Part shown: in pieces, positions 19,363 to 37,494 of the stretch | How positions within the stretch are numbered: the stretch's first letter is position 1 | Layout: every line of letters starts with the position of its first letter | Notes under the pieces: generated by a model | The model's input: the letters and a program-made list of their open reading frames with translations, nothing else | Database searches by the model: none | What the model was told of the DNA's origin: nothing | Made by a program: the position numbers and the translations under genes | Virus record (IMG/VR): IMGVR_UViG_3300032561_000025 | Coordinates: 1 to 58,715 of that record | DNA length: 58,715 nt | Reading direction: 5' to 3' (one strand) | DNA from: a virus | Taxonomy: Duplodnaviria > Caudoviricetes

Positions 19363-20141
<779 letters not shown>

Positions 20142-20318
20142 GGTCGTGGGAAAATGTCGCCACCAACCAACGAAAGGTTGACCCCCTGCCTTGGGCAGCG
20201 GCAATCGTTGGAGGGTGGCGGGAGGGGATTAACCCTCCAAGTTGGGTTTGATGATTTCATCTGCCGGGGTCAACGACGGCATTGCCAGACGGGAAAATTT
20301 CCCGGCTGGTGTGCAGGG

Positions 20319-20741: not shown

Positions 20742-20869
20742 AGGTAAATGAGGACGATGCAAAACAGGGATATGAGCCCGCAGATGATGGCGATGATAAG
20801 GATGTCGAGGTCGTGTATTAGAACGAATATTCTCAGCCGTCTCCTCAACTCCTCAAGGATCGCTTTCAT
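20738..20869 (-). CDS. Small membrane protein
   Basis: One C-terminal hydrophobic helix; ATGA overlaps. Confidence 0.5.
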   Translation of the reverse strand: MKAILEELRRRLRIFVLIHDLDILIIAIICGLISLFCIVLIYL

Positions 20870-21159
20870 TGGGTGATCAGGTTGAACTTCACAAGGACGG
20901 CGCGGGCTTGGGTACAGTACTGAACCTTCATCAGTTCGCTGCAACACCGCATGGGGCATCCGGCAATCGCTTCGGCGGCATCATCAATCATCTTTCTCCT
21001 GCGCTCGCTGTTCACCTCGGGGCCAAGCGGGGGAGTGACGCCTTTCACGGGTGGCGTCTCCTGTTCGGGCTCCGGATCCGCAGCAACCCCCTCTTCGTCA
21101 AGAGGGATCACGCGCATTTTCCCAGACAACTTCAGGACGGTTTTCTTGGGCTCGCTCAT
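20866..21159 (-). CDS. Hypothetical protein
   Basis: Translationally coupled ORF with a Cys-rich C-terminus. Confidence 0.5.
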   Translation of the reverse strand: MSEPKKTVLKLSGKMRVIPLDEEGVAADPEPEQETPPVKGVTPPLGPEVNSERRRKMIDDAAEAIAGCPMRCCSELMKVQYCTQARAVLVKFNLITQ

Positions 21160-21266
21160 AGGTCATCCGTCTTGTCAGGGCCGTCACCACCCCAGATGAC
21201 GTAGCCAATTATGATCCCTAGAGCGAGGGCCACGCCTACGCAGGTGATCACGGATTCATTGGACAT
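21156..21266 (-). CDS. Small single-TM protein (36 aa, not in ORF track)
   Basis: MSNESVITCVGVALALGIIIGYVIWGGDGPDKTDDL; ATGA overlap. Confidence 0.45.
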   Translation of the reverse strand: MSNESVITCVGVALALGIIIGYVIWGGDGPDKTDDL

Positions 21267-21423
21267 GATTGCTATGATCATGGCTTTTGTCGGCAAATAA
21301 AAATATCGCTAACAAGAGGAACAATGCTGCTCCCCAAATATCGTGCGCCGTCGCCGGGTGATCTTCAATGTAGGTGATCACAAACATGGAGACAAAAAAT
21401 CCCAACATGAAGATGCGTTTCAC
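21256..21423 (-). CDS. Small two-TM membrane protein
   Basis: GTG start overlapping the upstream stop; two hydrophobic segments. Confidence 0.45.
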   Translation of the reverse strand: MKRIFMLGFFVSMFVITYIEDHPATAHDIWGAALFLLLAIFLFADKSHDHSNHVQ

Positions 21424-21683
21424 GGCTTTTCCCCCTCCGCGAGCGCGGCCTCGTACTCCTTTAGTACCTGAACTCCAGCGTAGGCAGCATCTGATGTTTG
21501 CCCGGCGTACTGTCCCTGTCCAACGTACCAACGCTCCCACTTCCGAAGTGCATCTATAGCTTTTATGAGCAGCACCGACTTCTGCTCCAGACGGAGGTAT
21601 TCCAAACGCGCTTTATGTCCATCTGGTAAGTGTTCAACCACTTGCTTCAGGGACATTTCTTGCCCGGCTGTTACCTCACTCAT
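21420..21683 (-). CDS. Hypothetical protein
   Basis: Translationally coupled 87-aa ORF. Confidence 0.5.
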   Translation of the reverse strand: MSEVTAGQEMSLKQVVEHLPDGHKARLEYLRLEQKSVLLIKAIDALRKWERWYVGQGQYAGQTSDAAYAGVQVLKEYEAALAEGEKP

Positions 21684-22066
21684 GGCTTAATATTTTCGTA
21701 GAACCAGTTCGATCCCTTGCGTTGCACGGCGATAAAGTGGATGAACGGGTATGTCCGCGCTGCGACCTTGATCTTCACTCGGGCGTCATCCCTCCAAAAC
21801 CCTTTCACCTCGTAGGCCACCAGACCTCCCTCGTATAGGCGAACGAAGTCAGGGGTGTATCGGCAATCGTCCCCCAGCTTCAAGGTCATGCACTGGATCC
21901 CAAGGAAGGCGTGCGGCCATGACCGCAGCAGATCAAGGAATCGCTTCTCGGTCTTGTTTAAATTATCCTCGTCGGAGTTCGGCCTCATTGAAATTTTCAT
22001 CGGCTCGCCGCGCTTGGCGACCCGCGCCTGCAAGATCATAAACTCTGCCTCGGACATTCCCATCAC
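21680..22066 (-). CDS. PD-(D/E)xK endonuclease (DUF1064-like, possible resolvase)
   Basis: NKTE..F, RYTPDF and EVKGFW.DDARVKIK.AA motifs. Confidence 0.75.
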   Translation of the reverse strand: MMGMSEAEFMILQARVAKRGEPMKISMRPNSDEDNLNKTEKRFLDLLRSWPHAFLGIQCMTLKLGDDCRYTPDFVRLYEGGLVAYEVKGFWRDDARVKIKVAARTYPFIHFIAVQRKGSNWFYENIKP

Positions 22067-22273
22067 TCAATTCCCCAGATCTTCAATCGTCTCTTGGCAT
22101 CCGTAGAGGGTGCTGTAAAATTCGCTCTGGGTAAGTTGCGACGGGCGGGGCCAATATCGGCTGATGTGCTTACCGCCAAACCGGAACTTCCACCAGTAGT
22201 AGGAATCCCCAACCTTTATTCCGTGGTCGGGAATTGCTTTCCGCGCCGATTTTACAAAGGTTGCGTGTGCCAT
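22067..22273 (-). CDS. Phage hypothetical protein
   Basis: VKSARK....I..GDSYYWWKF..G.K....P..SQLT pattern. Confidence 0.6.
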   Translation of the reverse strand: MAHATFVKSARKAIPDHGIKVGDSYYWWKFRFGGKHISRYWPRPSQLTQSEFYSTLYGCQETIEDLGN

Positions 22274-22276
22274 AAA

Positions 22277-22603
22277 TTATCCCTTCCTCCAGACGAAGAA
22301 CGTGCCGCCAGCCGGGTTGACGCGCTCCTCGACAATGATCGGGCCGTGCTCGGTTTCCATCGGCTTGTTGTCCTCGTCTAGCTTTATCGGGAACTGATCG
22401 ACGCTGTAGCGTTCTGCCTTGGAGTTCTGTAACCACGCGAGGGCGCGGCAGGTCTTTTCGTCAAAGGCGCGGTGTGGGTTGTTTAAAATCTTGGAAAGCC
22501 CGGAGGGGCTGATTCCAAGCATCTCAGCGGCCTGTGTCTTGCCGCCTCGGGGCATTGCCTCAAGCATGGCGCGGAGCCAGAAAGTAAGAAGTTCGCTGTT
22601 CAT
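22277..22603 (-). CDS. Cro/XRE-like HTH regulator
   Basis: GKTQAAEMLGISPSGLSKILN helix-turn-helix; ATG at 22603. Confidence 0.7.
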   Translation of the reverse strand: MNSELLTFWLRAMLEAMPRGGKTQAAEMLGISPSGLSKILNNPHRAFDEKTCRALAWLQNSKAERYSVDQFPIKLDEDNKPMETEHGPIIVEERVNPAGGTFFVWRKG

Positions 22604-22977
22604 TGTTCTACGATCTCCGGAGCCCCGCCCTTCGGTGCTGTATGGAAAATGTAACGACGCTGCATCTCGTCGAACTCGACGGCGACGATGTTTACTCCCT
22701 GCTCCTTGAACTGGTTCAGCCTCCTGCTCAGTTCCAGTGCGGGCTGACCAAGGCAGTTGAGCGAGCAGGACAGTTCGGTGACGATGTTCGTCCTGCGCCA
22801 CTCCACCTCGGGCAGGTGCTTGGCGATGATCCTGCGGAAGACTTCAGCCGAGAGCGTCAGGATCTCGACCGACTTCTCGGCGAGTTGATCCTGTAGCGGC
22901 TTCGCATCCGAATAAGTCCTTTCCATCAACGACAGCAGTGACTCCTTCGGCAATGCCTTTAGCTCTTCGGTGTCCAC
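22600..22977 (-). CDS. Hypothetical protein, first gene of the replication operon
   Basis: TTGACA-17-TCTACT promoter places +1 at about the GTG. Confidence 0.55.
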   Translation of the reverse strand: MDTEELKALPKESLLSLMERTYSDAKPLQDQLAEKSVEILTLSAEVFRRIIAKHLPEVEWRRTNIVTELSCSLNCLGQPALELSRRLNQFKEQGVNIVAVEFDEMQRRYIFHTAPKGGAPEIVEQ

Positions 22978-22984
22978 GGGGCGC

Positions 22985-23013
22985 AGTAGAAATGTCCCTC
23001 AGTACGGTGTCAA
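22985..23013 (-). promoter_or_regulatory. Sigma70-like promoter for the replication operon
   Basis: AAGTA TTGACA N17 TCTACT, 7 nt from the start codon. Confidence 0.55.
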
Positions 23014-23113
23014 TACTTAATTAGGAAACTTGTTCCCAACTTACTCCCAGTCAAGCCTATATTGCATGAAATTCCTTGACGTTTGGACAGATTGCCAAAG
23101 CGTCAAGATCACT

Positions 23114-23530
23114 ATGTCACATACTCCTCGCTTCCTCCCCACCGCAATGCTGTTCGCTGACGGCAATGCGATCCTCACCTCCGAGACGATCACCACCGGC
23201 ACGAAGACCGTGATGGCCGACACCATCGCCCGAATCAACGTGGCGATCACCGAGGTCAATACCTATTACTGGCTGTACGGATACAGCGCGAGCCCGGCCA
23301 TCCCGGCAGTGCCGACCGTCGCAGCCGCGACCTCCTCCAATGCCCTCGCCAACGGCATCTTCTACCAGAGTGCCAATGCCGATGACGCTGGCCTCTCGGT
23401 AGAACTCGCCGACCGCACGATGTCCGAAGGGTTCACCCGCCCGCAGTCCGCGCTCGACGCGATCCTGACGGAGCCGAACCTGTCGAACATCAAGCTCGCC
23501 CGGTCGAACCTCGACTCGGGTAAGAGCTAA
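23114..23530 (+). CDS. Stand-alone hypothetical protein
   Basis: Strong C-ending codon bias, its own TTGACG element and a downstream terminator; opposite strand to both neighbours. Confidence 0.7.
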   Translation: MSHTPRFLPTAMLFADGNAILTSETITTGTKTVMADTIARINVAITEVNTYYWLYGYSASPAIPAVPTVAAATSSNALANGIFYQSANADDAGLSVELADRTMSEGFTRPQSALDAILTEPNLSNIKLARSNLDSGKS

Positions 23531-23576
23531 CCCCAGCTTCAGCGGGGCGCGATTCCCCGCTCGCTCAGAGGGTAAA

Positions 23577-23623
23577 GGCACCCCTCCGGTACGCCATCTA
23601 CGACCGGGGGGGTTGCCGTTTTT
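23577..23623 (+). terminator. Intrinsic terminator between convergent genes
   Basis: GGCACCCCTCCGGT...ACCGGGGGGGTTGCC stem followed by GTTTTT. Confidence 0.55.
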
Positions 23624-23639
23624 ACACGGTCCGCACCGT

Positions 23640-26600
23640 TTAAATTTCTCCCCTACGCTTGAGTTCTTCAAGCATGGGAGCGGCAACATCATCCGAAAGT
23701 TTCTTCTCTCGGATCAGATTCTGGATGTACTCCTCCCGCTTGGCGTGTGGCATGGCTGCCACCTCTTCGGCCATTTGGAAACCCTGAATCTGGTTTGCCA
23801 CGCTGTCGGTGATTGTTTTGACCTTGATGCCGTGGGCAACGATTTCCTCTGCCTTATCCGGAGCCCGGTTTATCAGAGTCAAAAGGAACCTTGCCCGGTC
23901 GCCGTTTTCCTCGGTCATGTTTCGGATGTTCCGGTCCGACCCAGTAAGCCCCTCGACTTCCCCGGTGACATCCTTCAGGAGACGCTTGATCTGCGGCTCA
24001 GTCATCTTGGAAAGGGTTTCCGTAGCCTCGTCTGCCGTCATGTCGCTGTTCCAGCGAGAAGCTAGGGTTTGGATCTTCTTGCCCTCGGCGTCTCTGGCCT
24101 GCTGCTGATTCCAGAGGGCCGATGAAGAAGCCCCCTTGAACTCGTCAACCGGACTGCTCGATTCGCTGTAGCCGACCGCCTTGCCAAGCGACTTTGCGAT
24201 GTTGGCCGCTCCAGATGCCGTGGGGCTTTGGCCGGGCCGTACCCGTGCGGAGCCCTGCATATACGCGGCGATCTGGGGCTGAATGGTTCCTAATGCAGCC
24301 TTGGCGTTTTCACCGAACTGAGCACCGGTCGGGAAATTTGTGCGATCTAGCGGGTTGGCAATGTCGGCGACACGGTAACCGTTCACGGTATGTCCGGAGA
24401 TCATCACCGATGCCGCGTTCACTGCCGGTCCGCACCACGGCTGGGTCATGCCGCCGATGATGTCCGTCATCGATTCTCCCGCGATGTGGTTGGGATCATA
24501 CCCGTCCTTGAGCCCGTTCACCACTGAGTTTAAACCAGTGATGCGCATTCCACGGCGAAGGTTCGTCCACTTCAGGGGATCCACGTAATGCAGTGTCCCC
24601 TCCTTGTCGGTCCATCCGATTGCCCCCACCGGGGTTCCGGGCGGTCCCATGATCTTGCCGCTGAGAAGGTAATTCAGTGTGAGCGGCACGGCGATGGTAC
24701 TGACCAATGTGCCAGCCAGATTCGATGCCATCATCTTAGCCATTGCCGATCCGCTCGCCGCCTCGACTCCCGGTGCTCCCACAAGGGCGCGGACCGCACC
24801 ACGGTTGAAGTTCTGACCGGCCACGATGAACGGGGCCACACCGGCTTCCTTTGCGAACTGCTTCACCCTGCCCATGAGCCGTGTGTCGTACTGTCCGATC
24901 TGATTGATAAAGTCGCGCCTGCTGGCTTCGCTGTCCTTTGCAAGCCCTTGATCAACGAGATTGTCGTACAGGTCATCCATCACCAGACGCCCGGCCCGGT
25001 CGATGGCTTGAATGATTCCGGGGTGGGTTGCGCGGAGGGCTCCGGTCTCGGCCATGTGCGTCAGCTTATCGGCCACCTCGCCCATCGTGATCGGGTCCTG
25101 CATCGAAGAAAGCTGTTTAAATCCGGGCAAACGATTGAGCTTCCCAAGAAGTTCCGGGTCGTTCGCGCAGACATCCCTTAGGCGTTTCATCAGACGGATG
25201 TTCGCGTCGGCAATGTTCACTCCGGGGATCCGGCTCGCAATGTCCCACGGTGAGTTGCGTCCCAGTGATCGGGCAATCGTCGCCTCGATGTTCGCAACGT
25301 GGAAGGTGGGATCGGTGATGCTCTTCAACTGAACTGTGTTCATCGCCTTTGCGAACATCAGCCAGCCGTTCGAATCGAGCGGGCTGTCGGTCTGCATCAA
25401 GTGCCGGTGCTCGCTCCAGATGTCCTTGCGGATGTAGAGCGGTTCGCCACGGGCGAGGTAGGGATGGGTTTCCTCCCTCTTCCAGTTCCCCATGTCCTCG
25501 GGATCCGGTTCGGTTGTAGCCAGCCCGGCATCTTGCAGGCGGTTGTAATACTCGACCTTGGCGGCTCGCTCCGCATTCGCGGACGCCATCTTGGCGACCT
25601 GATTCTTGTAGGAAAGGTCGTAGCCCTCGGCGGTCCCGGCGCGTTCCATGTTCGTCGAGCTTCCCTGCCTGCGAGGATTTAAAAGGTTTCCGCGCCGCAT
25701 TCCTGCGGTTTCCCCTGTGTTTGGGAACCCTCCCTTTTCCGCATCCATGTCCCGCAGCAATGCCTCGGTGTTCACAAATACACCCGTGTTCGGGCCAAGG
25801 GCCGCGATCTTCCCTCCAAGCAGTCTCTGCCGTTCCTCGGCAATCTGCTGGATCCCGGCCTTATGCTTCTCCAGCACTGCCTGAACTTCCGGATTCTTCA
25901 ACGCGGCATCAAATTCCTCTTGGGTATGAATCGCCGTTCCCGGCATATCGAACACCGGCTTAACCCTCGGGATCTGCGCCTCGACGCGCTTCAGATCCTC
26001 ACGGGCCATCTTCTTCGTCTCCGCGTCTGCTTTCGGGTCATCGATGGTGGCGCGGGCGGCATCGCGCTGCTGATAAAGCTGATCCAGCTTGGCAAGCTGC
26101 ATCTCATGCACGGTCACCGATCCGATCAGCCGGTCGAAGTCAGGATCGTCCCAGTGAGTGCCAAGGTTTTTGATAGCCTCGGATGCGCCCTGCATATACC
26201 CAAGCTGACGCGCACCAACCAAGCGAAACGCGCCATTGGCGGCATTCTCGTCCGCTGCGCGAATATGGGGGATTCCATCCTTCGTGATGGCATACCTCAG
26301 GTAGCGAAAAGCGTTCGCGGTGCCACCCGGATGAGACAGGGCGAAGATCCCTCCACCGGTCAACATTGCCGCAGCCGCACCGTACCCCAAAGCATTCCGC
26401 AGCTTCACCTCCGGATCGTCGCTGTCCGTGTGATACCACCCGTAGGACGCTCCGCTCGCCCCGGCAAGCAACATGGGGGAATACTTTAGGATGCGGGCAT
26501 CGATGAAGCCTGCGGTGTTCGGATCTGCGGCCTTGTCGGGCGGCAGCTTTTCCAGTTCGGACTCGCGCTTTAAACGCTCCTTCTGGGCTGCGGACTCGGC

Positions 26601-29600
26601 GGCGTCCATGACATCCCCGAACCCACCAGCATTTTCATCCATGCGAACCGGCATGATGACAGACGCCATTCTGTCCCCATCCGTCAAGACCATCGCCTTG
26701 TCCTCAGGCCCAATGTAAAGCCTAGGGTTGTTCGTACCCATTCCGCGTGCCTGCTCCAATCCGTCCCGCAGAAAGTCGGAATTGATCGAGAAGATCGGCT
26801 TGCTGCCCTTCGCTATTCCCGGAGCGGAGTATTCACCCGTCTCCAAATTTTGTACCCCGATAGCCAGCTTGCCGTTACCGATGTCGTAAATTCCGACCGC
26901 ATTGTGCTTTTCATCCAGCATCGCTGCGGCCCGGTCGATCTGCTTGATCAGATCCTCGGCATCCACCTTGTACGGCTTGTACGGACCCGTGTCCCGCTTG
27001 ATCGTGACACCATTCTTCCCAACGTCCATGACTTCCTTCGGGACAACCTCCCTCCAGTTCGGATATTTACCACCGTCCTTGTTCTTGGCGATGTCTGCAA
27101 TGTCCCTGCCCTTACCGCCGATAGCAAACGTCAAGCGGCGTCCATCTGTGGCAACCGTGAACGGTCCATCCTGTGCGACCTGATTCAGGACGTAGCGCGT
27201 TGAATCTGTGCTCTGCGAAAGGGCTACCGTTTTCGTGATACTTTCCGCCGTGGGGTTATCGTTTAAACGTGCTACCCCCTTGGGATTCGGAGCTTCCCTT
27301 CCTCCGAGTTCCTTTCCGAACGGAGGCTGAACGGTGACCCTTTCAGATTCCCTCGGATCGAACGGGAGCGTGAAGGACTTCCCGAAACGCTTGTTGATGA
27401 TGTCCCTGAAATTGGTGAGCGCAGCCTTGGAGTTTACGACCGAATAGGACCCGTCATCGGGAACATGGATGACAACCTTTCCCGCCGGTTCATCCGGAGC
27501 CTTGTCGATTAGTTGACCCAGAGCATCGTTGATGAATGCCTTCTGCGCCCCGAACTGCTTCTTGTCCACCAGACGCGAGACTGACTTCTCGCCGACTTCC
27601 GTGGTCTTGGCCTCAACCCCACCGTCCGGGGTTGTCTCGACATGGGCCGGTGCCTTCTCCTCGGGTGCTCCCTCGACCTCGACCGGGATGGGCTTTGCAG
27701 GCGTGCCTTCCGGTTTAAATTCACCAGCCGCTTCCTTCATCCCAGAGCGCAGCGCAACCCGGATCTGAGCAGCCACATCATCCGCAACCGACTTTTTGTT
27801 CTCAGAAATCTTTAGGATGTCGGCTAGATTGTCGTTGGAAATCAGCCCGTCCTGACCGTACTTCCGGGCCAGTTGCGCCATCTGCCAGCTAGTGACGTTC
27901 TCCGCTGCGGACCGCTCATCGACTTCGCCCAGTGCCTTCTGATATTGTTCGGCGGTTGGCGCGGGCTTTTCAATCCCCGGTGCCTCTTCCTCGTCAATGC
28001 TGACAGGAATCGTGGGAGGTTCCGCTTTCGGTGCTGCCTTCTCCGGAACAGGAGCGGGTGCCGCTTCGGCGGGTGCCGGGGCTTGGGGTGCTTCGGATGC
28101 TGGCGCAGCAGGCGCAGGGACAGCGGCGGGGGAGGGAACTGGAGCGGGGGCTTTCTGCGCGTTTTCCGCATTCGCCCGCAAGCTCATCTTGAGTTCGTTC
28201 CCAAGATCCTCAGGACCCATGTCCTTGTCCTTTGCCATGCGCTGAACCTCTGCAAGTCCGCGATCCGTGATCAGCCCGTTCTTCAACGCCTTGCGTGCCA
28301 ATGATATGATCTTGGACTTCTTAACCTCAGGATCGATCAAAGCGTTATCGACTTCTTCCTGTGCGGCATCGTGCGGGGACTGCTTCGCCTCAGGCTCCGC
28401 TTCGCCTTCCTTGGGCTTAACAATCTCCAGCAACTGATCCTGATATTCCTGACGGGTCAGTTCGTGCGCCCGCAACTGCTCCTTCATGTAGTCGAGCCGG
28501 TCGGGATCTGACGCCTTCAGCTTGGCCTCTGCCTCACGGATCATTGCGGGGGTCGGCCTTGGCGTTTCTGTGGCCGCTGCGGCTGGAACGGGCTCCTCGG
28601 CACCCTTGGGTACTGCCGGGGGACTGGTGGGCTTAAAAGCGGGTTTCTGGGCCGATGCGGGGGTTTCCTGCGCCGGGGTAGGCGGGACCTCATAACCGGC
28701 CCGCTCCAACTGTTGCGCGGTGACCGTCTGGCCCTTTGTCCCTCCAAGGATGTCTTCGTTTAAACGGTAAACCGGCTTTTCGCCATCGGCTCCAAAGGAC
28801 ATCGTTCCGGCGTAAACCGCAGGGGCGGTCTTGCGCGGGGCGGCGGGTCCGGTCGTGGGACGCTCGCTGGTCGCCGCAGGGGAAGTCGGGCCAGCCGGTG
28901 TGGTGGATTCTGCCGGGGGAGTCGGCGCGGTCGATTCACCGGCCTGCATCTTTTCCACCTTCTCCTGATCGTTCGGGAAGCTGGCGGGAACCGTTCCCTG
29001 CGGAAGCCCCGGCTGCTCAAGACTGGGTTTCTGAGACTGCTCGATCTTTTGCTCCAGTGCCGCCCGCTGCTTTTCCTGATCGGCTTGTGGTCCGGTCATC
29101 TTCCCCTCTTCCGCTCCGGGAACCATTGCCTCCCCCTCGCGCTGGGTCTTCAGCGCATTCTGCCACCACTCGATATAGGAGTCCCTTGCCTTGGCCGCGT
29201 CCTCGTCGGTTTTCGCGGCCTTGTCGAGCATATCGATGGCATCCACCGGATGCTTCCCCTCAATTGTCTTTGCGATGTCGGGAGGAACGTCGAGCGGGGA
29301 CATGGCGTGCGCTGCCGCTGCGGCGGCTCCGGTCAGGCCAAACAGCACGCTGCCCACCGCAGCGATCTTGTCGGCAAGCGTTGACTTCGGATTCTTAAAC
29401 ACCCCAACCACCTCCGGAATCTGGTCGAGAGCACCCTTCGCCATCTGCACGCCAAACCCACCGGAAATGATGTGTGACAGGAGCGGGGAAATTCCTGCGG
29501 CCCCAGAGGAGGCAAGCATCAATGCCGCGTTCTCCGGAGTCGCCATGCTCTGTGCGAAGTCGCCACCCGCACGGGCCATGCCCTCCGCTACTCCACCCTT

Positions 29601-30179
29601 CGGAGCGGCGGGGAATATGTCTCCGGGGTGTTCAGGCAGGGGAAGGAAATTGCGACCTCCGTCACCCGGCTTCTTGTCGTAACTCTGCTTGATCCAGCGT
29701 GCAACCGGAGCAAGCGGGAGCGGAACTGGCAATCCGGGGGCCACCATCGCGCCCTTCGAATAACTCTGGATTATCCGAGCCGCAACGTCTTCAGCCGGTT
29801 CCTTTACCGAATCCGGAATGCCTTTTGTGTTTCGATTCTTGAGCAGCGGATCCTGATCCAAAACTCCCTCAAGCGCGGTTCCCGTGGCCGAAAGAAGTTT
29901 GCCCGCCGTGCTTCGTTTAAACTCGTCAGTGATGCGCCCCAAGGCTCCTCGTCCACGGTAATTGTTCTCGTCGGGCTGCGCGGGTTCCTCCTGTTCAGGC
30001 TGGGGGCCAAGAAGGTCGGTGACACTTTGACCACCTTCCGGTCGCGGGGGCGGTCCAAGCAAATCATTGACGGACTGCTGCTGACGCTGCGCCGCAGACG
30101 GATCCGTACCCAATAGGTCGGCGACCGTCTTCCCTGCGGCGGTTTGGTCCGGGCCGAGGAGATCAGCGACGGTTGCCAT
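23640..30179 (-). CDS. Large internal virion / DNA-ejection protein (polyvalent type)
   Basis: 2179 aa, last of three genes after the tailspike. TVADLLG N-terminal repeats, Pro/Ala linkers, hydrophobic hairpins and an embedded beta-clamp-like segment. Confidence 0.75.
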   Translation of the reverse strand: MATVADLLGPDQTAAGKTVADLLGTDPSAAQRQQQSVNDLLGPPPRPEGGQSVTDLLGPQPEQEEPAQPDENNYRGRGALGRITDEFKRSTAGKLLSATGTALEGVLDQDPLLKNRNTKGIPDSVKEPAEDVAARIIQSYSKGAMVAPGLPVPLPLAPVARWIKQSYDKKPGDGGRNFLPLPEHPGDIFPAAPKGGVAEGMARAGGDFAQSMATPENAALMLASSGAAGISPLLSHIISGGFGVQMAKGALDQIPEVVGVFKNPKSTLADKIAAVGSVLFGLTGAAAAAAHAMSPLDVPPDIAKTIEGKHPVDAIDMLDKAAKTDEDAAKARDSYIEWWQNALKTQREGEAMVPGAEEGKMTGPQADQEKQRAALEQKIEQSQKPSLEQPGLPQGTVPASFPNDQEKVEKMQAGESTAPTPPAESTTPAGPTSPAATSERPTTGPAAPRKTAPAVYAGTMSFGADGEKPVYRLNEDILGGTKGQTVTAQQLERAGYEVPPTPAQETPASAQKPAFKPTSPPAVPKGAEEPVPAAAATETPRPTPAMIREAEAKLKASDPDRLDYMKEQLRAHELTRQEYQDQLLEIVKPKEGEAEPEAKQSPHDAAQEEVDNALIDPEVKKSKIISLARKALKNGLITDRGLAEVQRMAKDKDMGPEDLGNELKMSLRANAENAQKAPAPVPSPAAVPAPAAPASEAPQAPAPAEAAPAPVPEKAAPKAEPPTIPVSIDEEEAPGIEKPAPTAEQYQKALGEVDERSAAENVTSWQMAQLARKYGQDGLISNDNLADILKISENKKSVADDVAAQIRVALRSGMKEAAGEFKPEGTPAKPIPVEVEGAPEEKAPAHVETTPDGGVEAKTTEVGEKSVSRLVDKKQFGAQKAFINDALGQLIDKAPDEPAGKVVIHVPDDGSYSVVNSKAALTNFRDIINKRFGKSFTLPFDPRESERVTVQPPFGKELGGREAPNPKGVARLNDNPTAESITKTVALSQSTDSTRYVLNQVAQDGPFTVATDGRRLTFAIGGKGRDIADIAKNKDGGKYPNWREVVPKEVMDVGKNGVTIKRDTGPYKPYKVDAEDLIKQIDRAAAMLDEKHNAVGIYDIGNGKLAIGVQNLETGEYSAPGIAKGSKPIFSINSDFLRDGLEQARGMGTNNPRLYIGPEDKAMVLTDGDRMASVIMPVRMDENAGGFGDVMDAAESAAQKERLKRESELEKLPPDKAADPNTAGFIDARILKYSPMLLAGASGASYGWYHTDSDDPEVKLRNALGYGAAAAMLTGGGIFALSHPGGTANAFRYLRYAITKDGIPHIRAADENAANGAFRLVGARQLGYMQGASEAIKNLGTHWDDPDFDRLIGSVTVHEMQLAKLDQLYQQRDAARATIDDPKADAETKKMAREDLKRVEAQIPRVKPVFDMPGTAIHTQEEFDAALKNPEVQAVLEKHKAGIQQIAEERQRLLGGKIAALGPNTGVFVNTEALLRDMDAEKGGFPNTGETAGMRRGNLLNPRRQGSSTNMERAGTAEGYDLSYKNQVAKMASANAERAAKVEYYNRLQDAGLATTEPDPEDMGNWKREETHPYLARGEPLYIRKDIWSEHRHLMQTDSPLDSNGWLMFAKAMNTVQLKSITDPTFHVANIEATIARSLGRNSPWDIASRIPGVNIADANIRLMKRLRDVCANDPELLGKLNRLPGFKQLSSMQDPITMGEVADKLTHMAETGALRATHPGIIQAIDRAGRLVMDDLYDNLVDQGLAKDSEASRRDFINQIGQYDTRLMGRVKQFAKEAGVAPFIVAGQNFNRGAVRALVGAPGVEAASGSAMAKMMASNLAGTLVSTIAVPLTLNYLLSGKIMGPPGTPVGAIGWTDKEGTLHYVDPLKWTNLRRGMRITGLNSVVNGLKDGYDPNHIAGESMTDIIGGMTQPWCGPAVNAASVMISGHTVNGYRVADIANPLDRTNFPTGAQFGENAKAALGTIQPQIAAYMQGSARVRPGQSPTASGAANIAKSLGKAVGYSESSSPVDEFKGASSSALWNQQQARDAEGKKIQTLASRWNSDMTADEATETLSKMTEPQIKRLLKDVTGEVEGLTGSDRNIRNMTEENGDRARFLLTLINRAPDKAEEIVAHGIKVKTITDSVANQIQGFQMAEEVAAMPHAKREEYIQNLIREKKLSDDVAAPMLEELKRRGEI

Positions 30180-30183
30180 CGCG

Positions 30184-31449
30184 TTAGTCTCCTACATTGA
30201 ACCGCTTTTTGAGGACTGCGGCGGCTTGATCCCAAGTGATCTTTTTGGCCTTGTAATCGGCAACGACCTGATCGGTGGACTTGTAATTCGCGCCGAAGTC
30301 GGTGAGCCCTCCCTCTTCTTTGGCTGGGGCAGAAGTCTGCGGGAGAGGCTGGGCAGGCGAGGCTGGGTTCGGAGGAGGATTGCTGAATGTTCCCGTCCTT
30401 GAACTCGGTCCGTTTCCGGGGGCCGTTCCGCTGCCGCCCTGCGTTCCTGTGGCAGGCTGCGCGTTTCCGGCACCATTTTTCTTGGCCTGAATCGCGGCGA
30501 GCAGGGTATCTGTCGCCGAAGTCTTGGGCTGACCGGAAATCTTCACGGACGCCTGCCGTTTCTGAAGGGCATCAAGTTGCGCCTGCGCCTTCGCATATTC
30601 AGGGCTGTTCTGATCCATGCCCTCCATTGAGGTCGCAAGCTCGTCGATCTGCGCCTGATTCTGACGCCACTCAGACTGTGCAGGGGGCTTGGTGTTCTTC
30701 GGAGCCCCCGGAGCCGTGGCAGATGCGGCATTGATCAAACCCTGCGCCGTTGAATACTCAAGGGCCGCTTTCGTCTTTTCCTCCTGAGAAGCGTTCGGAT
30801 CCATGATGACCCCCATCGCGGCGTCCATGCGATTTTGGGCATTGTTCTGCCAAACGCTTCTCCCCGTCCGCTCGATCTTCTCGGTCGGAGCACCGAAAGG
30901 AACCGCCTCGCCCTTCTCATTAACTGCGGTGGGCTGTTCCGTCGAAGTCGTGATTCCCGGCGTCTTCGGGTTCTCGGGATTGATCGTCACACGCGATCCA
31001 ATCGGGGCGAGAGTGTTCGTAACATCTGAGGCGATATTGCGATTAATGACCTGACCGGTATTCGGATCCCTGATAGGAATCCCGGTCTGGACATTCAACG
31101 AAGTCGTTCCGGTATCCAGATTTCGGCTAGGCGTTGACGTTCTGCTTTCCGGAAGCTGACCGTTGTGGGTCGCCGCGTAAACCTTCAACTCTGGGGAAAG
31201 TTGATTGATCGCATTCCTTGCATCGGCTTCTGCCTGACGCCGCGCAACTTCTCCTGCGACCGCCGCAGCGACCGCTCGCGGATCGATGGTGGGCGCAGCT
31301 TCAGCACCCGCCTTCTGCGTGGCGATCTTCTGCTGCGCCAGTGCCTGCTTCTGAATCGCGTCCTGTATAAACGCCTGTTCAGCCTCGTTGCCCATCTTCG
31401 CCGTGTCGAAGAAGCCTGCGTCCCCTAGTGATACAAAGTTGCCGGGCAT
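30184..31449 (-). CDS. Internal virion / ejection protein
   Basis: Ala/Gln/Pro-rich helical protein between the pilot and the large ejection protein. Confidence 0.6.
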   Translation of the reverse strand: MPGNFVSLGDAGFFDTAKMGNEAEQAFIQDAIQKQALAQQKIATQKAGAEAAPTIDPRAVAAAVAGEVARRQAEADARNAINQLSPELKVYAATHNGQLPESRTSTPSRNLDTGTTSLNVQTGIPIRDPNTGQVINRNIASDVTNTLAPIGSRVTINPENPKTPGITTSTEQPTAVNEKGEAVPFGAPTEKIERTGRSVWQNNAQNRMDAAMGVIMDPNASQEEKTKAALEYSTAQGLINAASATAPGAPKNTKPPAQSEWRQNQAQIDELATSMEGMDQNSPEYAKAQAQLDALQKRQASVKISGQPKTSATDTLLAAIQAKKNGAGNAQPATGTQGGSGTAPGNGPSSRTGTFSNPPPNPASPAQPLPQTSAPAKEEGGLTDFGANYKSTDQVVADYKAKKITWDQAAAVLKKRFNVGD

Positions 31450-31463
31450 GGTAGTTTAAATTC

Positions 31464-32261
31464 CTAGAACGCGAGAAGGTCTGGAAGGAATGAACTTAAC
31501 ATATCGGCGATGCCTCCACCAGCAGCAGACATTAACCCTGCCGTTCCTCCCGTGCCTCCGAGCAAATTGTAGATGCTTCCCGCACCTGTAAGCCCTCCGA
31601 GGATAGACTGAAGTTGGTTCGGCTGCTGAACCATCGTCGGATATCCGATTGTTGCTCCACCGGCAAGTTGCTGTGTGACCCCAGCCTGAGACTGGTACGG
31701 GGCGTACAGCGCATTGTTCACTCCGGACAGGTAGCTCAAGGGCTGGCTCACCGCACCCGAGATGATGCCCGGTGCGTTCTGCTGCTGCTGCCGCTCAAAC
31801 TCCTCGTTCTGGGTGAGGATCTGGCCGCGTGACAACGCGCCCTTCTGGGCCGCAGAGGCAATGTCGGCGTCCGTCGCCTGCTGGTTGGCCGTAGAGAATC
31901 CCATTCCCGCCCGAGACATTTGCGCCCTCTGGCGTGCCGCAGCGTCCTGCCCGGCTCCCAACTGGCTCTGATACGCCTGATTTGCGTAGTTGGAAACCAG
32001 CGGGCTCTGAAGGTAATTCCCGTTCAGTTCGTTTAAACCGTAGTTGTAAATCGAACCGAAGGCCGGATTGTTCGCTGCTCCCTGAAGGCGATTGGCAAAT
32101 GCGTTTGCCGAGTTCGTCGCGTTGCTGAGTCCCCCGTTGTTCAATGCGTCGAAGATCGACTGCATCGAAGTGATCGCACCCGTGTTCGGGGTGTTGCCCT
32201 GACCGTACATATTGTATACGGAGGGCTGAACGGTCGAGTAATTGGTCCCTAGGAAACTCAT
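31464..32261 (-). CDS. Internal virion / DNA pilot protein
   Basis: Gln/Asn/Ala/Gly-rich with a Gly-rich hydrophobic C-terminus, typical of podovirus ejection proteins; ATG at 32261. Confidence 0.65.
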   Translation of the reverse strand: MSFLGTNYSTVQPSVYNMYGQGNTPNTGAITSMQSIFDALNNGGLSNATNSANAFANRLQGAANNPAFGSIYNYGLNELNGNYLQSPLVSNYANQAYQSQLGAGQDAAARQRAQMSRAGMGFSTANQQATDADIASAAQKGALSRGQILTQNEEFERQQQQNAPGIISGAVSQPLSYLSGVNNALYAPYQSQAGVTQQLAGGATIGYPTMVQQPNQLQSILGGLTGAGSIYNLLGGTGGTAGLMSAAGGGIADMLSSFLPDLLAF

Positions 32262-32347
32262 GTGCCGGGCTTGAGTTTCTTGACAAAACTTTCCTACAGG
32301 CAACAAGAAACGTCCTTTCGGACATTTCTAATTTGGAAAGAAACGCG

Positions 32348-35131
32348 CTAGGTTGCGACTGTGATGATCGCCTGATAAAATCCGGTCACGGTCCCGCCGC
32401 TGACGTTGCGAAGCGTCAGCTTCATCTGGTAGGCATCCGTTGCCGTGTCATCGACAATCGACTCGCAGATCACCCCGATGGCAGAGGTTGTGTTGACGCG
32501 GAACAGATTGCTCTTCCCGTCCAGCAAAGCCGAGTACGCATAGCAGACCTGAGTCGCCCCTGCTGCCATTCCTGACAGGGATATGTAAACCCCTAAAGTA
32601 TTGTTGTATCCTGCGTTGGCCCATTCTCCAGACGGGGATCCGGGGGTTGTCGGCATTGCGAGTCCTGCCGGCAATCCAAAAGACCCCACCGTGCCAAGGG
32701 AGATGATCTGGTTGAACCCAGAACCGGATGCGAAGGTGAATCGCGTGTAAGCCCCCGGAATGTCCGCTATGGCAAATTCGAACGTGCATCCGACGAAGTA
32801 TCCGTAAACGTAGCACGACGAATCGACGCACCCGCCAAACCACCCAGTGACCTTGAATACGTTCCTAGCAACAAAATATGGAGACTGGTTGAAAAACGCC
32901 TTCGCCCCAACGATGTTGTTTACATCGATGGCTATGAAATCCCAGATGTTTCCATCCCAAGAAACATTGGCTACGTTGTCGAACGAGACAGCATTATATC
33001 CCGTGTCGAAAAAGTTGCAGTGAAGCTCATTCCCCTGAAATACACATCCAGAACTTCCGTCCGAGGTGACAAGGGCTCCGATGGCGCAGTTTGAGATGTG
33101 CTGAACGAAAACCTTTGTGTCCAGAACCTCCTTGCCACCCGAAGCGTCCATCAAATACTTGACGGCGATGTGGCTTGTGGTGATCTCCTGAAGATCGAAA
33201 TTCCACACACCGCAGTTCCGTATCGTGATTCCGGCCCCTGAGGAAAAGCCGTGGATTCTCGGAAGGGTTGATTTTGCGATCCCGTTTCCGGAAAACAGAA
33301 AGGCATCTGTCGCCCCGGTTCCTGCGGTCAACGTCGAGTTCGGAGAAGCACTGATGGGTGTTCCGTAAAGCACCGTGATCACGCGGCTGGATCGAGTCGT
33401 GTAGGCTCCGTCCATTGCTATGATCTGCGTCGGATTCGCAGAGGTCCCCGTGCTGTTAATCGCCGCCTGAATTGAGAGGGAATCGTCGCCTCCGAGCCCC
33501 GCTCCGAACCATTCGACCGGGATCAGCGATGTCGCGGCTCCGATCTGGATTGTGTTTAAAATATACGAGCCGCTGAAAATCTGCTTTTTCGGGGCTTTGA
33601 TCGTTCCCGAGAAGGTGATTGTCTGACCGCTCTCTGGTTGGATCATGCCCTGAATCACAACTGGACTCGCAATGGTCAGGGCGGTTGCAACGTAGAATGT
33701 CCCGTATGGAAAAACAACTGTGCCTCCAACCGCTGCCGCAGCGGTGTCTGCCGCAGCAATCGCTGCACGGTCGTTGGTCAATCCGTTTCCGACCGCACCG
33801 TAATCCTTCACGTTGAAGTCATACGGTCCGTACCATCCAGCGTCGTAATTGGTCGCGCTGTTCTTTGCCAGCCGGGCGTACTTCGCGCCACCAGAAGGAA
33901 GACCGCCCCCACCTCCAGCGGGGGTTGACCAGTTTCCAGTTCCGTCCAGATACTTGCTCGCATCATTCGGAAGGACCGGCGCAACGCCAGAGCGGCCTGT
34001 CGAGACGGGCTGCTTGATGTTGTCAAAGGCCGTGGGAGCGTTTGCGACATCGAGCAAATTCTGGGCCTTGGACAGCTTGTAGGTGTCGGCATACGCTTCC
34101 GCTGCCGCAATTGCCGCAGCCTGTGCCGCCGCCGCCGCACCAGAAACATCGAACGAAGCCGCTGACTTTCCGCTATCCTTGATGAGTTTCCCGGTCACTC
34201 CATTATAGGACGCGAAATTGTCAGCTACCGCACCGGCTGGCCCTATGACATCCCCTGTCCCAGCCCCCGAAACGCTGATGGTCACGTTGCCCGTGCCGCC
34301 CGCAGGGCTGATGCTTATCCCAGTACCGGCGATGATTTGGGTAACTCCACCACCACCTCCTCCGGTCCCCAGCCCGCAGAAGCAGAATCCTGCGTTTTGC
34401 GCCCCGTCGAGAACAACGCCAGAGATCGGCGTGACCGTGAAATCAATGTAGCCCGTGTGCGGGGTTACGGTCGTGATCGCAAATATCGAGAACTTCGTCC
34501 CGTTGTTCTCCTCGAAAATCAGGATGTAATTCCCGGCAACAAGCTGACCCATGATTCCGGAAATATCATTCCCGCTTCGATCAAGAGTGCTTGCAAAGAC
34601 ATGGGTGATCGACCCAAAGGTGGCATTGTTGTACGCCACCATTCCTGCGCCGGGAGGGGCCGTGGTCCCGGCAGAAAACACTTGGTGAAGCGTGAACCCT
34701 CCAGCGAGTCCCGTTGTACCCTGAGGTCCCTGAATGTTGACCGCTAGGTTGATGTTGCTCGTCAGCCCGGACTCCGCGATGTAAAGGCCAGCGGCGGGCT
34801 TTGTCGTGCTTCCTCCGGTCCAATCGATGATCAGGGCAACGATCCCCACCCCGGATGGACCGGGGACCAAGGCGATGATTGGGCTCCAGCCATTGCCTCC
34901 AGCCGACACTCCGCTGGAAATGATAACCGGACTGGAAACCGTCGTGGGTGAAGATACGGACGATGCTGCCGGTACTGAAACGGTCAGGTTCTTAAACGCG
35001 AAGGAAACCTCCCTCGCCCATTTTTTAAACGTAGCCTCAACCTTTCCCGCATCACTGGAAGCATCGACTCCTGACGGTGCCGGTGACTCGTCAACCGGGG
35101 GCGAGATAACCGATAGAGTTTCGTCGGCCAT
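32348..35131 (-). CDS. Tailspike with pectate-lyase-3-like beta-helix
   Basis: FNVKDYGAVGNGLTNDRAAI and a second VEWFGA..GGDDS..IQAAIN motif. ATG at 35131 overlaps the upstream stop. Confidence 0.8.
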   Translation of the reverse strand: MADETLSVISPPVDESPAPSGVDASSDAGKVEATFKKWAREVSFAFKNLTVSVPAASSVSSPTTVSSPVIISSGVSAGGNGWSPIIALVPGPSGVGIVALIIDWTGGSTTKPAAGLYIAESGLTSNINLAVNIQGPQGTTGLAGGFTLHQVFSAGTTAPPGAGMVAYNNATFGSITHVFASTLDRSGNDISGIMGQLVAGNYILIFEENNGTKFSIFAITTVTPHTGYIDFTVTPISGVVLDGAQNAGFCFCGLGTGGGGGGVTQIIAGTGISISPAGGTGNVTISVSGAGTGDVIGPAGAVADNFASYNGVTGKLIKDSGKSAASFDVSGAAAAAQAAAIAAAEAYADTYKLSKAQNLLDVANAPTAFDNIKQPVSTGRSGVAPVLPNDASKYLDGTGNWSTPAGGGGGLPSGGAKYARLAKNSATNYDAGWYGPYDFNVKDYGAVGNGLTNDRAAIAAADTAAAAVGGTVVFPYGTFYVATALTIASPVVIQGMIQPESGQTITFSGTIKAPKKQIFSGSYILNTIQIGAATSLIPVEWFGAGLGGDDSLSIQAAINSTGTSANPTQIIAMDGAYTTRSSRVITVLYGTPISASPNSTLTAGTGATDAFLFSGNGIAKSTLPRIHGFSSGAGITIRNCGVWNFDLQEITTSHIAVKYLMDASGGKEVLDTKVFVQHISNCAIGALVTSDGSSGCVFQGNELHCNFFDTGYNAVSFDNVANVSWDGNIWDFIAIDVNNIVGAKAFFNQSPYFVARNVFKVTGWFGGCVDSSCYVYGYFVGCTFEFAIADIPGAYTRFTFASGSGFNQIISLGTVGSFGLPAGLAMPTTPGSPSGEWANAGYNNTLGVYISLSGMAAGATQVCYAYSALLDGKSNLFRVNTTSAIGVICESIVDDTATDAYQMKLTLRNVSGGTVTGFYQAIITVAT

Positions 35132-37494
35132 CAGTAGGTGTTTCCAAGGCGACCAAGGATCCGGCACTGGGAAATGCGGAAGGTAAGCCCCGGAGTTGCA
35201 GCCTGAATCTTAACCCTGAAGAAACGTCCCGCCGCCTTCACGTTCGTCTTGGTGACGTAATTCTTGTTCCCCTGAACCATCAGCACAATCGGAGCCGACC
35301 ACTTGATGTCATCATCATAGTTTGCCCGAGCACCGATATAGACAAAGATCGGCATCGCCACAGAACGCTTGGACTTGGTTTGGATCGAGAACCACTGGGT
35401 GTCCGCGTACTTCCATGTGAGAGGATCCCCTCCGTCGTGATCCACCGATTCGTAAACCGAGCAGATCGGATCGCCAATGCGGTCCGTGGCTCCGTTGTCA
35501 TAAACCATCAGGCCAGCGGCGTTGTTTAAATTGAGCGTTGCCGCAGGAGCTAGGAAATATGGATTTATCCCGGTCCCCGCCACATAGCCGAATGCCGCCG
35601 CGATTTGCTCGTCTGCCGTTGAGCGGGCCTGAAGAACCGACAAAGCGGGCCATGCGCCATTCGTGTACCAGTACGAGTTGAAGAAGTTCAAAAACTCAAG
35701 CGGATCCTGAGGACCCGTTGCCGTGGGATGCGCGGTATTGTAAAGATCCCTCGCAGCCGTAGGAGACATCGTAGGCTGTAGCGGGGGCGCATCCGTCTGT
35801 ACCGCCATAACCGGGTAGGCGGGATAGGCGTCCGATACCTCGTCTGCCCACTCCGCTGAAGCCGTAAATGACTGTGGGTTTGCCCATGTTCCGCTTACCG
35901 TGCTCCAGATGTAATCCTGATTCCAGTCGATCCTTCCCATCGCCGTGATCGCGCTGAATGCCGTCGAATAATCATCAATGGTGCAGGAGTTTTCGACGTA
36001 GTTGTAAATGAATACGCGAAGGGATCCGGTTCCAAACTGCGTCACCCGAGGGTAAATAAACCAGATTTCGAAGTCCTTCTCGTTGTGGAATCCGATGATC
36101 TCGCTCGCCCGAGACAGATCCAACTCCTCCTTTAACTGCTTGTAGTGCTGCTGGGCAATCGGAGTCAGCGTGCTGCTGCCTTGGTAGCAGTAGATTCCAC
36201 GGTTTCCCCAGAGGTAGATCCTGTCCTGACCCACCTTCACAAAGGAATAATCACCGACCAGACCCTCGTCGGTTATCTCCGGGCGAAGGAAAAAAGTCCC
36301 GTTGCCAACACCCGTGTACTGCAACGACTGGATCGAGCGGTTCTTGAAGATGTAGGCGTAGTCCGAAATCGTATCAACGTGCAGGATCGGACCGTTCACC
36401 AAGGATCCCGTGTTCACCAGTTCCCCCGCACCGTTCGCGTCCACGGTGAAAATCTGGGTCCCAATTGGGAATACAGTTCCTTCCGCTGCCGCGCCTGTCA
36501 GATCCTGAGGAACGACGGTGAATCCAAAGATTTCATTGATCGGCTCCGCGAACACGCTCACCGCATCGTTTAAACCGATGTTCGTCACGTTGACGTAGGA
36601 CTGGCCGACAATGAACTCTCCAGCGTTGTGTCCCCCGGTCCCAGAGGATCCGACGCCAACCCTCTTTAAGACCATCGTGTTGTTCACAGTGTCGATGCTG
36701 TTTACAACGTAAATGTCCTGCCCCGGAGATCCTACCGGGCCAATCGACACATAGACGCCGGGCTCAAAAAGCGGGATAGTGGAAACCGAAACAACCACCG
36801 TGTCCCCGGCATTTGGGTTCGCAAAATCAGCCGACAGGGCAAGCACCGCTCCAGATGCTGCAACCGCCGCCGTGTTCACCCGCATGATGTTGCTGGGATT
36901 TGATGCGAAGCAGATCCGAGTCTGTGCCTCGTAGGGGACGTAGGATTGCAGGAAAATATCCTTAGTGACACCGGCTGGGACGGTCTGGGTAAATCCGGAT
37001 GCGGTCCCCACGATACCGCTTGCAGGCAGAACGCTTCCAACTTGGAAGAACGTGAACGTGGGATCAGTGTCGATCCGAAGGAATTGCAACGCCTGAAGCC
37101 CCGTGGGATTCTGATCGACGTAGATGTAATCGCTCTCGACCCCAACCGCAGGAAGCGTGAATACTGCGGTCGTGTTGAAGACAAAGCTGCTCGCCGTTGT
37201 CCCCACCGGAATCCACATCGTAAAGTCATTCTGGTCGGACCACTTCAATATGTCTCTGCTCCACAGCAAAATGAATCCCTGAAACGCATTGACTCCCTTA
37301 TACGTTGTCCCGGCAGGAAGTCCGGGGATCACGGAAACGGACGGGGATGACGCATCCCACATCACGGGAGCAACATCCGGATGCGTTACAAGAACCTTGT
37401 TCAGGTAATTGCAGCAGACGAACCTTCGACCGGGGCGGGCAATTCGCCTTCCGAAATCAGTGATTGGACTGAGCGTGGCCGAGAGCGCACCCAT
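35131..37494 (-). CDS. Tail nozzle / tail tubular protein B-like beta-propeller (C-terminal part)
   Basis: WSD..D...W, YIFK.RSI, IY.Y.G....I, EIWFIYP and GRFFRVKI, a P22 gp10 / T7 gp12-like pattern. Confidence 0.7.
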   Translation of the reverse strand: MGALSATLSPITDFGRRIARPGRRFVCCNYLNKVLVTHPDVAPVMWDASSPSVSVIPGLPAGTTYKGVNAFQGFILLWSRDILKWSDQNDFTMWIPVGTTASSFVFNTTAVFTLPAVGVESDYIYVDQNPTGLQALQFLRIDTDPTFTFFQVGSVLPASGIVGTASGFTQTVPAGVTKDIFLQSYVPYEAQTRICFASNPSNIMRVNTAAVAASGAVLALSADFANPNAGDTVVVSVSTIPLFEPGVYVSIGPVGSPGQDIYVVNSIDTVNNTMVLKRVGVGSSGTGGHNAGEFIVGQSYVNVTNIGLNDAVSVFAEPINEIFGFTVVPQDLTGAAAEGTVFPIGTQIFTVDANGAGELVNTGSLVNGPILHVDTISDYAYIFKNRSIQSLQYTGVGNGTFFLRPEITDEGLVGDYSFVKVGQDRIYLWGNRGIYCYQGSSTLTPIAQQHYKQLKEELDLSRASEIIGFHNEKDFEIWFIYPRVTQFGTGSLRVFIYNYVENSCTIDDYSTAFSAITAMGRIDWNQDYIWSTVSGTWANPQSFTASAEWADEVSDAYPAYPVMAVQTDAPPLQPTMSPTAARDLYNTAHPTATGPQDPLEFLNFFNSYWYTNGAWPALSVLQARSTADEQIAAAFGYVAGTGINPYFLAPAATLNLNNAAGLMVYDNGATDRIGDPICSVYESVDHDGGDPLTWKYADTQWFSIQTKSKRSVAMPIFVYIGARANYDDDIKWSAPIVLMVQGNKNYVTKTNVKAAGRFFRVKIQAATPGLTFRISQCRILGRLGNTY

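Follow-up and report, generated by a model that had tools for sequence, protein, structure and literature searches.

The Giant Gene and Its Clamp Motifs

The window analyzed here is the whole of the IMG/VR virus record IMGVR_UViG_3300032561_000025, which comprises 58,715 bases, is classed as linear and has an estimated completeness of 93%. Our subject is a segment of the giant protein P0001, which is encoded by an open reading frame (ORF) of 2179 amino acids on the minus strand (23640-30179): Residues 975-1180 of this protein are genuinely related to the beta sliding clamp of bacteria, DnaN. An earlier note, made from the sequence alone, had placed a clamp-like domain with six signature motifs at 26640-27240. 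The plus-strand frame of that site is the non-coding one, and the motifs are read from the minus strand, where all six occur in the claimed order within residues 990-1179 of P0001 (window 26643-27212):

STDSTRYVLNQV, residues 990-1001, 27177-27212, minus strand
VATDGRRL, residues 1009-1016, 27132-27155, minus strand
GKYPNWREVVP, residues 1037-1047, 27039-27071, minus strand
DAEDLIKQIDRA, residues 1073-1084, 26928-26963, minus strand
FSINSDFLRDGL, residues 1130-1141, 26757-26792, minus strand
VIMPVR, residues 1174-1179, 26643-26660, minus strand

The virion genes of the record encode a portal, a large terminase, a major head protein, tail, tail-spike-like and virion-structural proteins; its further genes encode a DnaB-like helicase, a DnaD-like loader, an exonuclease and methyltransferases. 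The P0001 gene has the tail-spike-like and virion-structural genes on its upstream side and the DnaB and loader genes on its downstream side; it shares its strand with the tail-spike-like gene, from which it lies two genes downstream. Among the 50,697 phage records of INPHARED, neither a tblastn search with the module nor a megablast search with 20 kb of the window (20000-40000) gave a match.

Homology to the Beta Clamp in Sequence and Fold

The clamp homology proposed in the earlier note is borne out by family profiles, by PDB sequences and by structure comparison, which all agree. P0001 matches PHROG 947, annotated as 'DNA polymerase processivity factor', with E 7.5e-8 over family positions 255-367 of 368, and NCBIfam TIGR00663 (dnaN) with E 1.1e-7 over positions 255-366 of 367, the score of the latter being far under the equivalog cut-off (31.2 vs 137.65 bits). 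A single-sequence search of the PDB gave one DnaN match (E 0.01). With a profile built from six module sequences, all 29 distinct matches among PDB sequences were beta clamps (best E 8.3e-7), and the alignment extends end to end, placing profile positions 3-205 on residues 136-366 of Escherichia coli beta.

The fold was predicted twice with AlphaFold. A first model of residues 826-1200 was mediocre, with a predicted local distance difference test score (pLDDT) of 59.9 overall; its residues 975-1180 superimpose on E. coli beta 132-366 with a Z score of 15.2 and a root-mean-square deviation (rmsd) of 3.0 Å over 166 aligned residues. A second model, restricted to the core (residues 977-1181), reached a pLDDT of 86.8 and a predicted template modelling (TM) score of 0.85, and was compared exhaustively with 48,161 PDB representatives. 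The top 16 rows of this search are bacterial beta clamps (Z 15.2-19.0, rmsd 2.2-2.9 Å, 163-175 aligned residues), the best of which aligns with Z 19.0 and an rmsd of 2.5 Å over 173 residues. They are followed by a second tier consisting of PCNA, 9-1-1 and viral processivity factors at Z 6.3-12.3, and unrelated folds score 4.3 or less. The predicted fold, on which the earlier note had let its claim stand or fall, is therefore that of a clamp. A search of the BFVD with the model gave a best match at E 1e-9 with a TM score of 0.65, and the protein at rank 12 carries the sole annotation 'Large polyvalent protein-associated domain-containing protein'. A chance match of short motifs was considered as an alternative to homology and is ruled out by the profile search of the PDB together with the structure search.

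What the Module Keeps and What It Has Lost

The module descends, in reduced form, from a bacterial or phage beta sliding clamp, and the parts that it retains can be assigned as follows:

26640-27257, minus strand: the cut-down beta-clamp module as a whole (residues 975-1180), composed of half of domain II, the linker and domain III
27072-27257, minus strand: N-terminal half of domain II (residues 975-1036), a helix and three strands; R995, L998 and T1011-L1016 correspond to beta R152, L155 and T172-L177
27039-27071, minus strand: interdomain linker GKYPNWREVVP (residues 1037-1047); P1040 corresponds to beta P242 and V1045 to V247
26640-27038, minus strand: complete domain III (residues 1048-1180; TIGR00663 255-366, PHROG 947 255-367); N1133, F1136 and V1174-R1179 correspond to beta N320, Y323 and V360-R365

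Domain I is absent, as the earlier note had stated: PF00712 is not matched, the structural alignments begin at beta residue 132-133, and sequence and structure alignments taken together start at beta 132-136 and reach nothing earlier. The accompanying statement that domains II and III are present holds in full for domain III; of domain II, only the N-terminal half is found and about 40 residues are gone. In the profile alignment, beta ~196-236, which make up the second half of domain II, face a gap of about 40 residues, and the deletion also shows in the spacing of the motifs: The ATDGRRL strand and the YPNW linker are separated by 29 residues in the module vs 59-81 in full-length clamps, as measured in the 13 nearest full-length clamps in which both motifs could be located. 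Domain I and the ~40 residues of domain II are those parts of a clamp that the ligand pocket does not need. At its other end the module is not a terminus, for P0001 continues for about 1000 residues past VIMPVR.

A clamp ring contains twelve beta-alpha-beta-beta-beta motifs, and the three that the module holds leave room for the idea that a closed clamp is formed by a new route, with several copies or an upstream element completing the ring, which would then keep the host polymerase processive on phage DNA. The conserved upstream element in question (27387-27563, minus strand, residues 873-931) is predicted as a helix followed by strand-strand-helix; the strand-strand-helix part accompanies the module in 61 of 68 giant relatives and the helix in 36 of 68, and stand-alone cassettes of about 400 residues occur as well. 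However, this element bears no significant likeness to any part of full clamps (hhalign probability about 1%, E 0.057), and the module lies buried mid-chain in proteins of 1252-5386 residues. The beta dimer interface, as described in sections of PMC11139829, pairs I78 and F106 of domain I with I272 and L273 of domain III. Half of these contacts are thus missing along with domain I, and of the other half, the column of I272 is variable among 78 aligned module sequences: The equivalent of I272 is A1086 (A 17, E 13, Q 12 of 78); that of L273 is M1087 (M 21, A 19, V 17). Because domain I and the second half of domain II have been lost, no head-to-tail ring is expected, and we consider a ring closed in some other manner very improbable. 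A bona fide replicative clamp, which has three complete domains (about 366-390 residues) and a head-to-tail dimer interface, was likewise considered and is ruled out, as the module possesses neither.

Without significance, hhalign places the upstream element opposite the half of domain II that the module lacks. In the first AlphaFold model its pLDDT is 52-75, and the lone long structural alignment that includes it has an rmsd of 10.1 Å.

The Ligand Pocket

The ligand pocket of the beta clamp is the hub through which replication and repair proteins gain access to DNA, and it is a drug target. Sections of PMC11139829 assign R152, L155, T172, G174, H175, R176, L177, P242, R246, V247, V360 and M362 of beta to subsite I of this pocket, and H175, N320, Y323, V344, M362, P363, M364 and R365 to subsite II. 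The equivalents in P0001, as we read them off the alignment of the profile with PDB sequences, are R995, L998, T1011, G1013, R1014, R1015, L1016, P1040, E1044 and V1045 in domain II and the linker, and V1174, M1176, N1133, F1136, D1160, P1177, V1178 and R1179 in domain III. Of these 18 positions, 13 are identical to E. coli (R152, L155, T172, G174, R176, L177, P242, V247, V360, M362, N320, P363 and R365) and two are changed conservatively (Y323F and M364V). In the alignment of the 78 module sequences, 45 of the 205 columns are conserved to at least 60%, and these include 14 of the 18 pocket positions (hypergeometric p 1.6e-7), with counts such as 73 of 78 for R995, 73 for T1011, 75 for G1013, 75 for P1040 and 72 of 72 for M1176. 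The motifs that have been retained are hence those lining the binding pocket of a clamp, in keeping with the earlier note, and judged by its residues the hydrophobic pocket between domains II and III is kept.

The same columns bear on whether the module is instead a DNA-contact element, whose channel-lining helices would hold the end of the phage DNA during packaging or ejection without encircling it. Three helices of the channel type are kept in the model, the protein is probably delivered along with the DNA, and a monomeric variant of beta still binds DNA according to sections of PMC11139829. Yet a ring has twelve channel helices, of which the module retains only three, and the best-conserved columns are those of the pocket rather than of basic residues on the helix surface: K983 is found in 49 of 78 sequences, the column of residue 1079 holds K in 30 and R in 22 of 78, and the position of R1083 is mostly Q (56 of 78). 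Gripping of DNA, which the earlier note had entertained, is unlikely in the form of a ring without domain I; simple contact with DNA is possible, and as the purpose for which the module has been preserved it appears improbable to us.

Relatives in Other Phages

The module recurs in giant proteins elsewhere, which answers the call of the earlier note for a survey of this fusion. An exhaustive HMMER search over 1.84 billion cluster representatives gave 115 proteins that match the module at E<=1e-3, and 108 of these 115 stored proteins also matched in a re-scan with the longer cassette. They divide into 68 giants of 1252-5386 residues, three proteins of 500-999 residues and 37 of under 500 residues, the last class including true clamps of about 370 residues. 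The giants have a median length of 2476 residues and carry the module mid-chain (median relative position 0.41), and all 68 share the same precise deletion pattern. In IMG/VR, 11 loci contain relatives of the module, nine of them within open frames of 1670-3791 residues. When 23 proteins of the window were compared with the loci L002-L012 by tblastn, no match was obtained at E<=1e-5; these phages are therefore otherwise unrelated to that of the window. A scan of viral contigs with the single protein gave 23 pattern matches, 0 of which were confirmed.

Domains characteristic of polyvalent proteins were found in three of eight relatives scanned with Pfam, and no match was obtained for P0085, P0009 and P0014 in that scan. 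Together with relatives taken from a precomputed list, the assignments are:

P0007: LPD1, LPD5 and a 2H/Acb1-like domain, with DNA_pol3_beta_3 above its cut-off
P0006: Kinase-PolyVal
P0004 and P0005: Kinase-PolyVal, from the precomputed list
P0012: LPD38 and PBECR3

The giant gene lies near portal, terminase or tail-spike genes in three of the five loci whose neighbours were scanned, the scans of L007 and L009 being uninformative:

L002, 9056-14056: giant gene between a tail-spike gene and the portal gene
L003, 4157-11506: giant gene two genes upstream of the portal gene, after the terminase gene
L004, 4737-13553: giant gene between the terminase and portal genes

Smaller forms of the module were observed as well. 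Five mini stand-alone proteins of 206-225 residues (P0068, P0070, P0083, P0087 and P0108) have the motifs of half domain II and a shortened domain III, and five stand-alone cassettes of 397-465 residues (P0020, P0024, P0029, P0030 and P0044) comprise the whole cassette with its upstream element, M-P-x-R being their exact C-terminus. Neither the mini forms nor those of ~400 residues have a Pfam family of their own, and a word-indexed search for stand-alone relatives (206-657 residues) found none at E<=1e-3. In P0060 (770 residues) and P0101 (488 residues), the region of the ATDGRRL strand alone is repeated in tandem, with ten and four matched stretches, respectively; in P0101, '...VTTDGRRLE.ITDG...' recurs four times.

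The Remainder of the Giant Protein

P0001 as a whole contains long Pro/Ala/Glu-rich linkers and four hydrophobic 19-mers. A Pfam scan of its N- and C-terminal parts and of five neighbouring ORFs gave nothing above cut-off. Three regions stand out:

29994-30179, minus strand: four-fold N-terminal repeat x-V-x-D-L-L-G-[PT], at residues 6, 21, 39 and 55
29274-29639, minus strand: Gly/Ala-rich hydrophobic region (residues 181-302) with two hydrophobic 19-mers, common to P0012 (BLASTP E 5.6e-5)
24276-25940, minus strand: C-terminal region (residues 1414-1968), common, among module-bearing proteins, to P0085 only (BLASTP E 5e-49)

For the C-terminal region, a lead from the Atlas points to viral clusters, one of which has LPD38 in 61% of its members.

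The N-terminal repeat raises the question of whether the pocket docks a partner made by the phage itself, be it its own giant protein, the helicase, the loader or a small early protein, for assembly, autoinhibition or recruitment to the entering DNA. The four D-L-L-G repeats of P0001 are similar to the [SD]-L-[FL] with which clamp-binding motifs end, and short acidic-hydrophobic repeats likewise stand at the start of many related giants. Motifs of the [SD][LIVM][FL] type occur 15 times in the first 30 residues of 65 giants, against 5.8 expected, and are found in 12 of the 65 proteins; this enrichment is modest and weak, as the patterns were picked post hoc. Four-residue words are repeated within the first 90 residues in 23 of 65 giants vs 16 of 65 in a control stretch. 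The N-terminal motifs vary widely among the giants, whereas the pocket is nearly invariant, and an analysis of 69 giants shows no enrichment of canonical clamp-binding motifs (Q..[LM]F, for example, was seen 15 times vs 23.9 in shuffles), with none at all in P0001. A complex prediction of the module with the N-terminal 70 residues, run without controls, scored 0.00 (mark 0.32) and speaks neither for nor against binding. Outside the giant protein, an 83-residue ORF that resembles a zinc ribbon (6295-6546) ends in Q-M-I-I-L and would be a candidate partner, but chance alone predicts loose matches of this kind in phage ORFs. On balance, we regard docking of a phage partner as unlikely, albeit the least unlikely of the alternatives considered here; the lack of motif enrichment within the giants fits ligands that come from elsewhere.

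Besides the repeat of P0001, many other module-bearing giants start with short tandem acidic-hydrophobic motifs such as S-I-F-D-E-I-D, S-L-F-E-E-L-D and A-F-L-D, and these N-terminal motifs could be a capsid-targeting or clamp-motif-like signal. The 83-residue ORF is located on the minus strand and has two CxxC pairs; its end is like a C-terminal clamp-binding motif, which may be due to chance.

Proposed Role of the Module

Taking the retained pocket and the lost ring together, we propose, with a probability of roughly 0.55, that the module is a monomeric docking site for peptides with clamp-binding motifs, carried on a giant protein of the polyvalent type that is probably packaged and injected, and that it captures those host proteins which otherwise dock on the clamp. 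In the proposed mechanism, the giant protein would be packaged in the capsid and enter the cell together with the phage DNA. The module could then catch host proteins such as Pol III alpha and delta, Hda, translesion polymerases, MutS and MutL, and the outcome would be either that these partners are sequestered or that they are brought to the incoming phage DNA. That a pocket without a ring may suffice for this purpose is suggested by engineered beta: According to sections of PMC11139829, delta prefers a monomeric beta variant to the dimer by a factor of about 50 in binding strength, so that a monomeric clamp can act as a strong ligand trap. The gene content of the window points in the same direction. 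The families PolA, PolB and Pol III alpha were not found in the 93%-complete record, which supports the remark in the earlier note that the phage encodes no polymerase of its own, and a DnaB-like helicase and a loader are present; the phage would therefore depend on the clamp partners of its host.

Packaging and injection are probable on three grounds, namely the position of the gene, the relatives with polyvalent-protein domains and the relatives next to portal genes. P0001 is encoded among the virion genes of a phage with a portal-terminase system, as is characteristic of polyvalent proteins. It has neither an LPD nor an enzyme domain itself, and its status as 'polyvalent' therefore rests on its relatives.

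Several observations weigh against the proposed role. The two Pfam families suggested by the earlier note as a check are both detected in P0001, and both weakly: DNA_pol3_beta_3 (PF02768) gives E 0.0055 and 16.9 bits, under the 27-bit cut-off that is passed by the relatives P0007 (28.2 bits) and P0008 (30.5 bits), and DNA_pol3_beta_2 gives E 0.066. Outside the clamp module, no recognizable domain was found in P0001 with Pfam, PHROGs and NCBIfam, and its gene does not adjoin the portal gene, in contrast to those of L002-L004. Three of the 18 pocket positions differ from E. coli (H175R, R246E and V344D), and ligand preference may therefore differ, too. Furthermore, the pocket residues are the most conserved ones of real clamps as well, so that their conservation in the module may in part reflect inherited structure. 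Finally, the M-P of the terminal motif has been lost in P0014, P0015 and P0018, which end in V-I-M-Q-H-K, V-I-M-N-V-R and I-V-M-D-M-K instead, and pocket function may have lapsed in some lineages.

An alternative view is that the module is an inherited relic which persists as a stable spacer or packaging domain and has no ligand function, and the members without the M-P motif speak in its favour. Against this stands the near-invariance of the surface pocket residues in 78 sequences whose identity to that of the window is otherwise no more than 26-40%, as well as the identical, precise deletion pattern in all 68 giants; we thus hold a mere relic to be about as improbable as the DNA-contact element discussed above.

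A broader version of the docking role would extend to the whole class of giant injected proteins: They might act as a 'clamp-pocket decoy' that competes with the host clamp at the point of DNA entry or, in phages that lack a polymerase, as the first recruiter of the host replisome. We put this forward tentatively, as a possibility with the odds somewhat against it. If it is true, the clamp-loader delta subunit, Pol III, Hda, translesion polymerases, MutS and MutL would be targets of the decoy, which would represent a new kind of host-takeover or counter-defence effector. A natural clamp that is ringless and reduced to its pocket would, moreover, be a new route by which phages tap or jam the replication hub, and a protein-capture domain would be added to the parts catalogue of polyvalent proteins. 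In addition, nature thereby supplies a minimal definition of the pocket, one that comprises the linker, all of domain III and the N-terminal half of domain II.

Our literature search found no paper describing such a clamp module in giant phage proteins. The accessible sections of PMC7824862 do not link clamps to polyvalent proteins, and the main text of PMC5512222, in the portion available, does not use the terms clamp, DnaN, PCNA, sliding or polymerase III; its supplementary tables list 131 domains and might name the module.

Comparison with Known Systems

The closest well-characterized counterpart is E. coli DnaN (2POL/1MMI; PF00712, PF02767 and PF02768; TIGR00663), which has the same fold over beta ~133-366 and the same order of motifs. 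Bacterial beta clamps in general are 18-27% identical to the module and superimpose with Z up to 19.0 and an rmsd of 2.5 Å. Unlike DnaN, the module has neither domain I nor the second half of domain II and is embedded mid-chain in 2179 residues; real clamps end at VIMPxR, whereas P0001 does not. Within the pocket, H175 is replaced by R and R246 by E in P0001, most of the module family having Q at the latter position. This R and the Q of the family recur in the nearest full-length clamp-like proteins (340-400 residues, e.g. P0058 and P0072-P0074), which have ATDGRRL, YPNW.QV.P and the M-P-x-R end in common with the module family and carry R at the 175 position in 11 of 13 and Q at the 246 position in 10 of 13 cases. 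In contrast to the module, these proteins possess all three domains and the spacing of 59-81 rather than 29 residues. Because R at 175 and Q at 246 are common to both, the sequences suggest that the module probably derives from this branch of full-length clamps.

As a working analogy, the monomeric beta variant I272A/L273A bound to delta (1JQL; sections of PMC11139829) is the best available, since it is a ringless clamp that still uses its pocket; it is an engineered protein with three domains, whereas the module occurs naturally, as a truncated domain within a phage protein. Polyvalent proteins are known from phages and conjugative elements; those of phages, as described in the accessible part of Iyer et al. 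2017 (PMC5512222), are giant multi-domain proteins of portal-terminase phages that are predicted to be packaged and injected. Relatives of the module carry the LPD1, LPD5, LPD38, PBECR3, Kinase-PolyVal and 2H/Acb1-like domains; P0001 itself shows none of those named. Reduced clamp folds are also represented by the short 'PolIII beta-like' phage proteins in the BFVD (~210-250 residues), but these are separate small genes, for example:

Bacillus phage vB_BcM_Sam46
Xanthomonas phage Suba
Escherichia phage Seurat

Another phage protein aimed at the clamp system is Gp168 of phage Twort, known in complex with the Staphylococcus aureus beta clamp (PDB 7EVP), whose clamp chain matched our model. The small Gp168 protein attaches to the clamp of the host, and the window phage would appear, from its sequence, to pursue the opposite strategy by carrying a copy of the clamp's own pocket.

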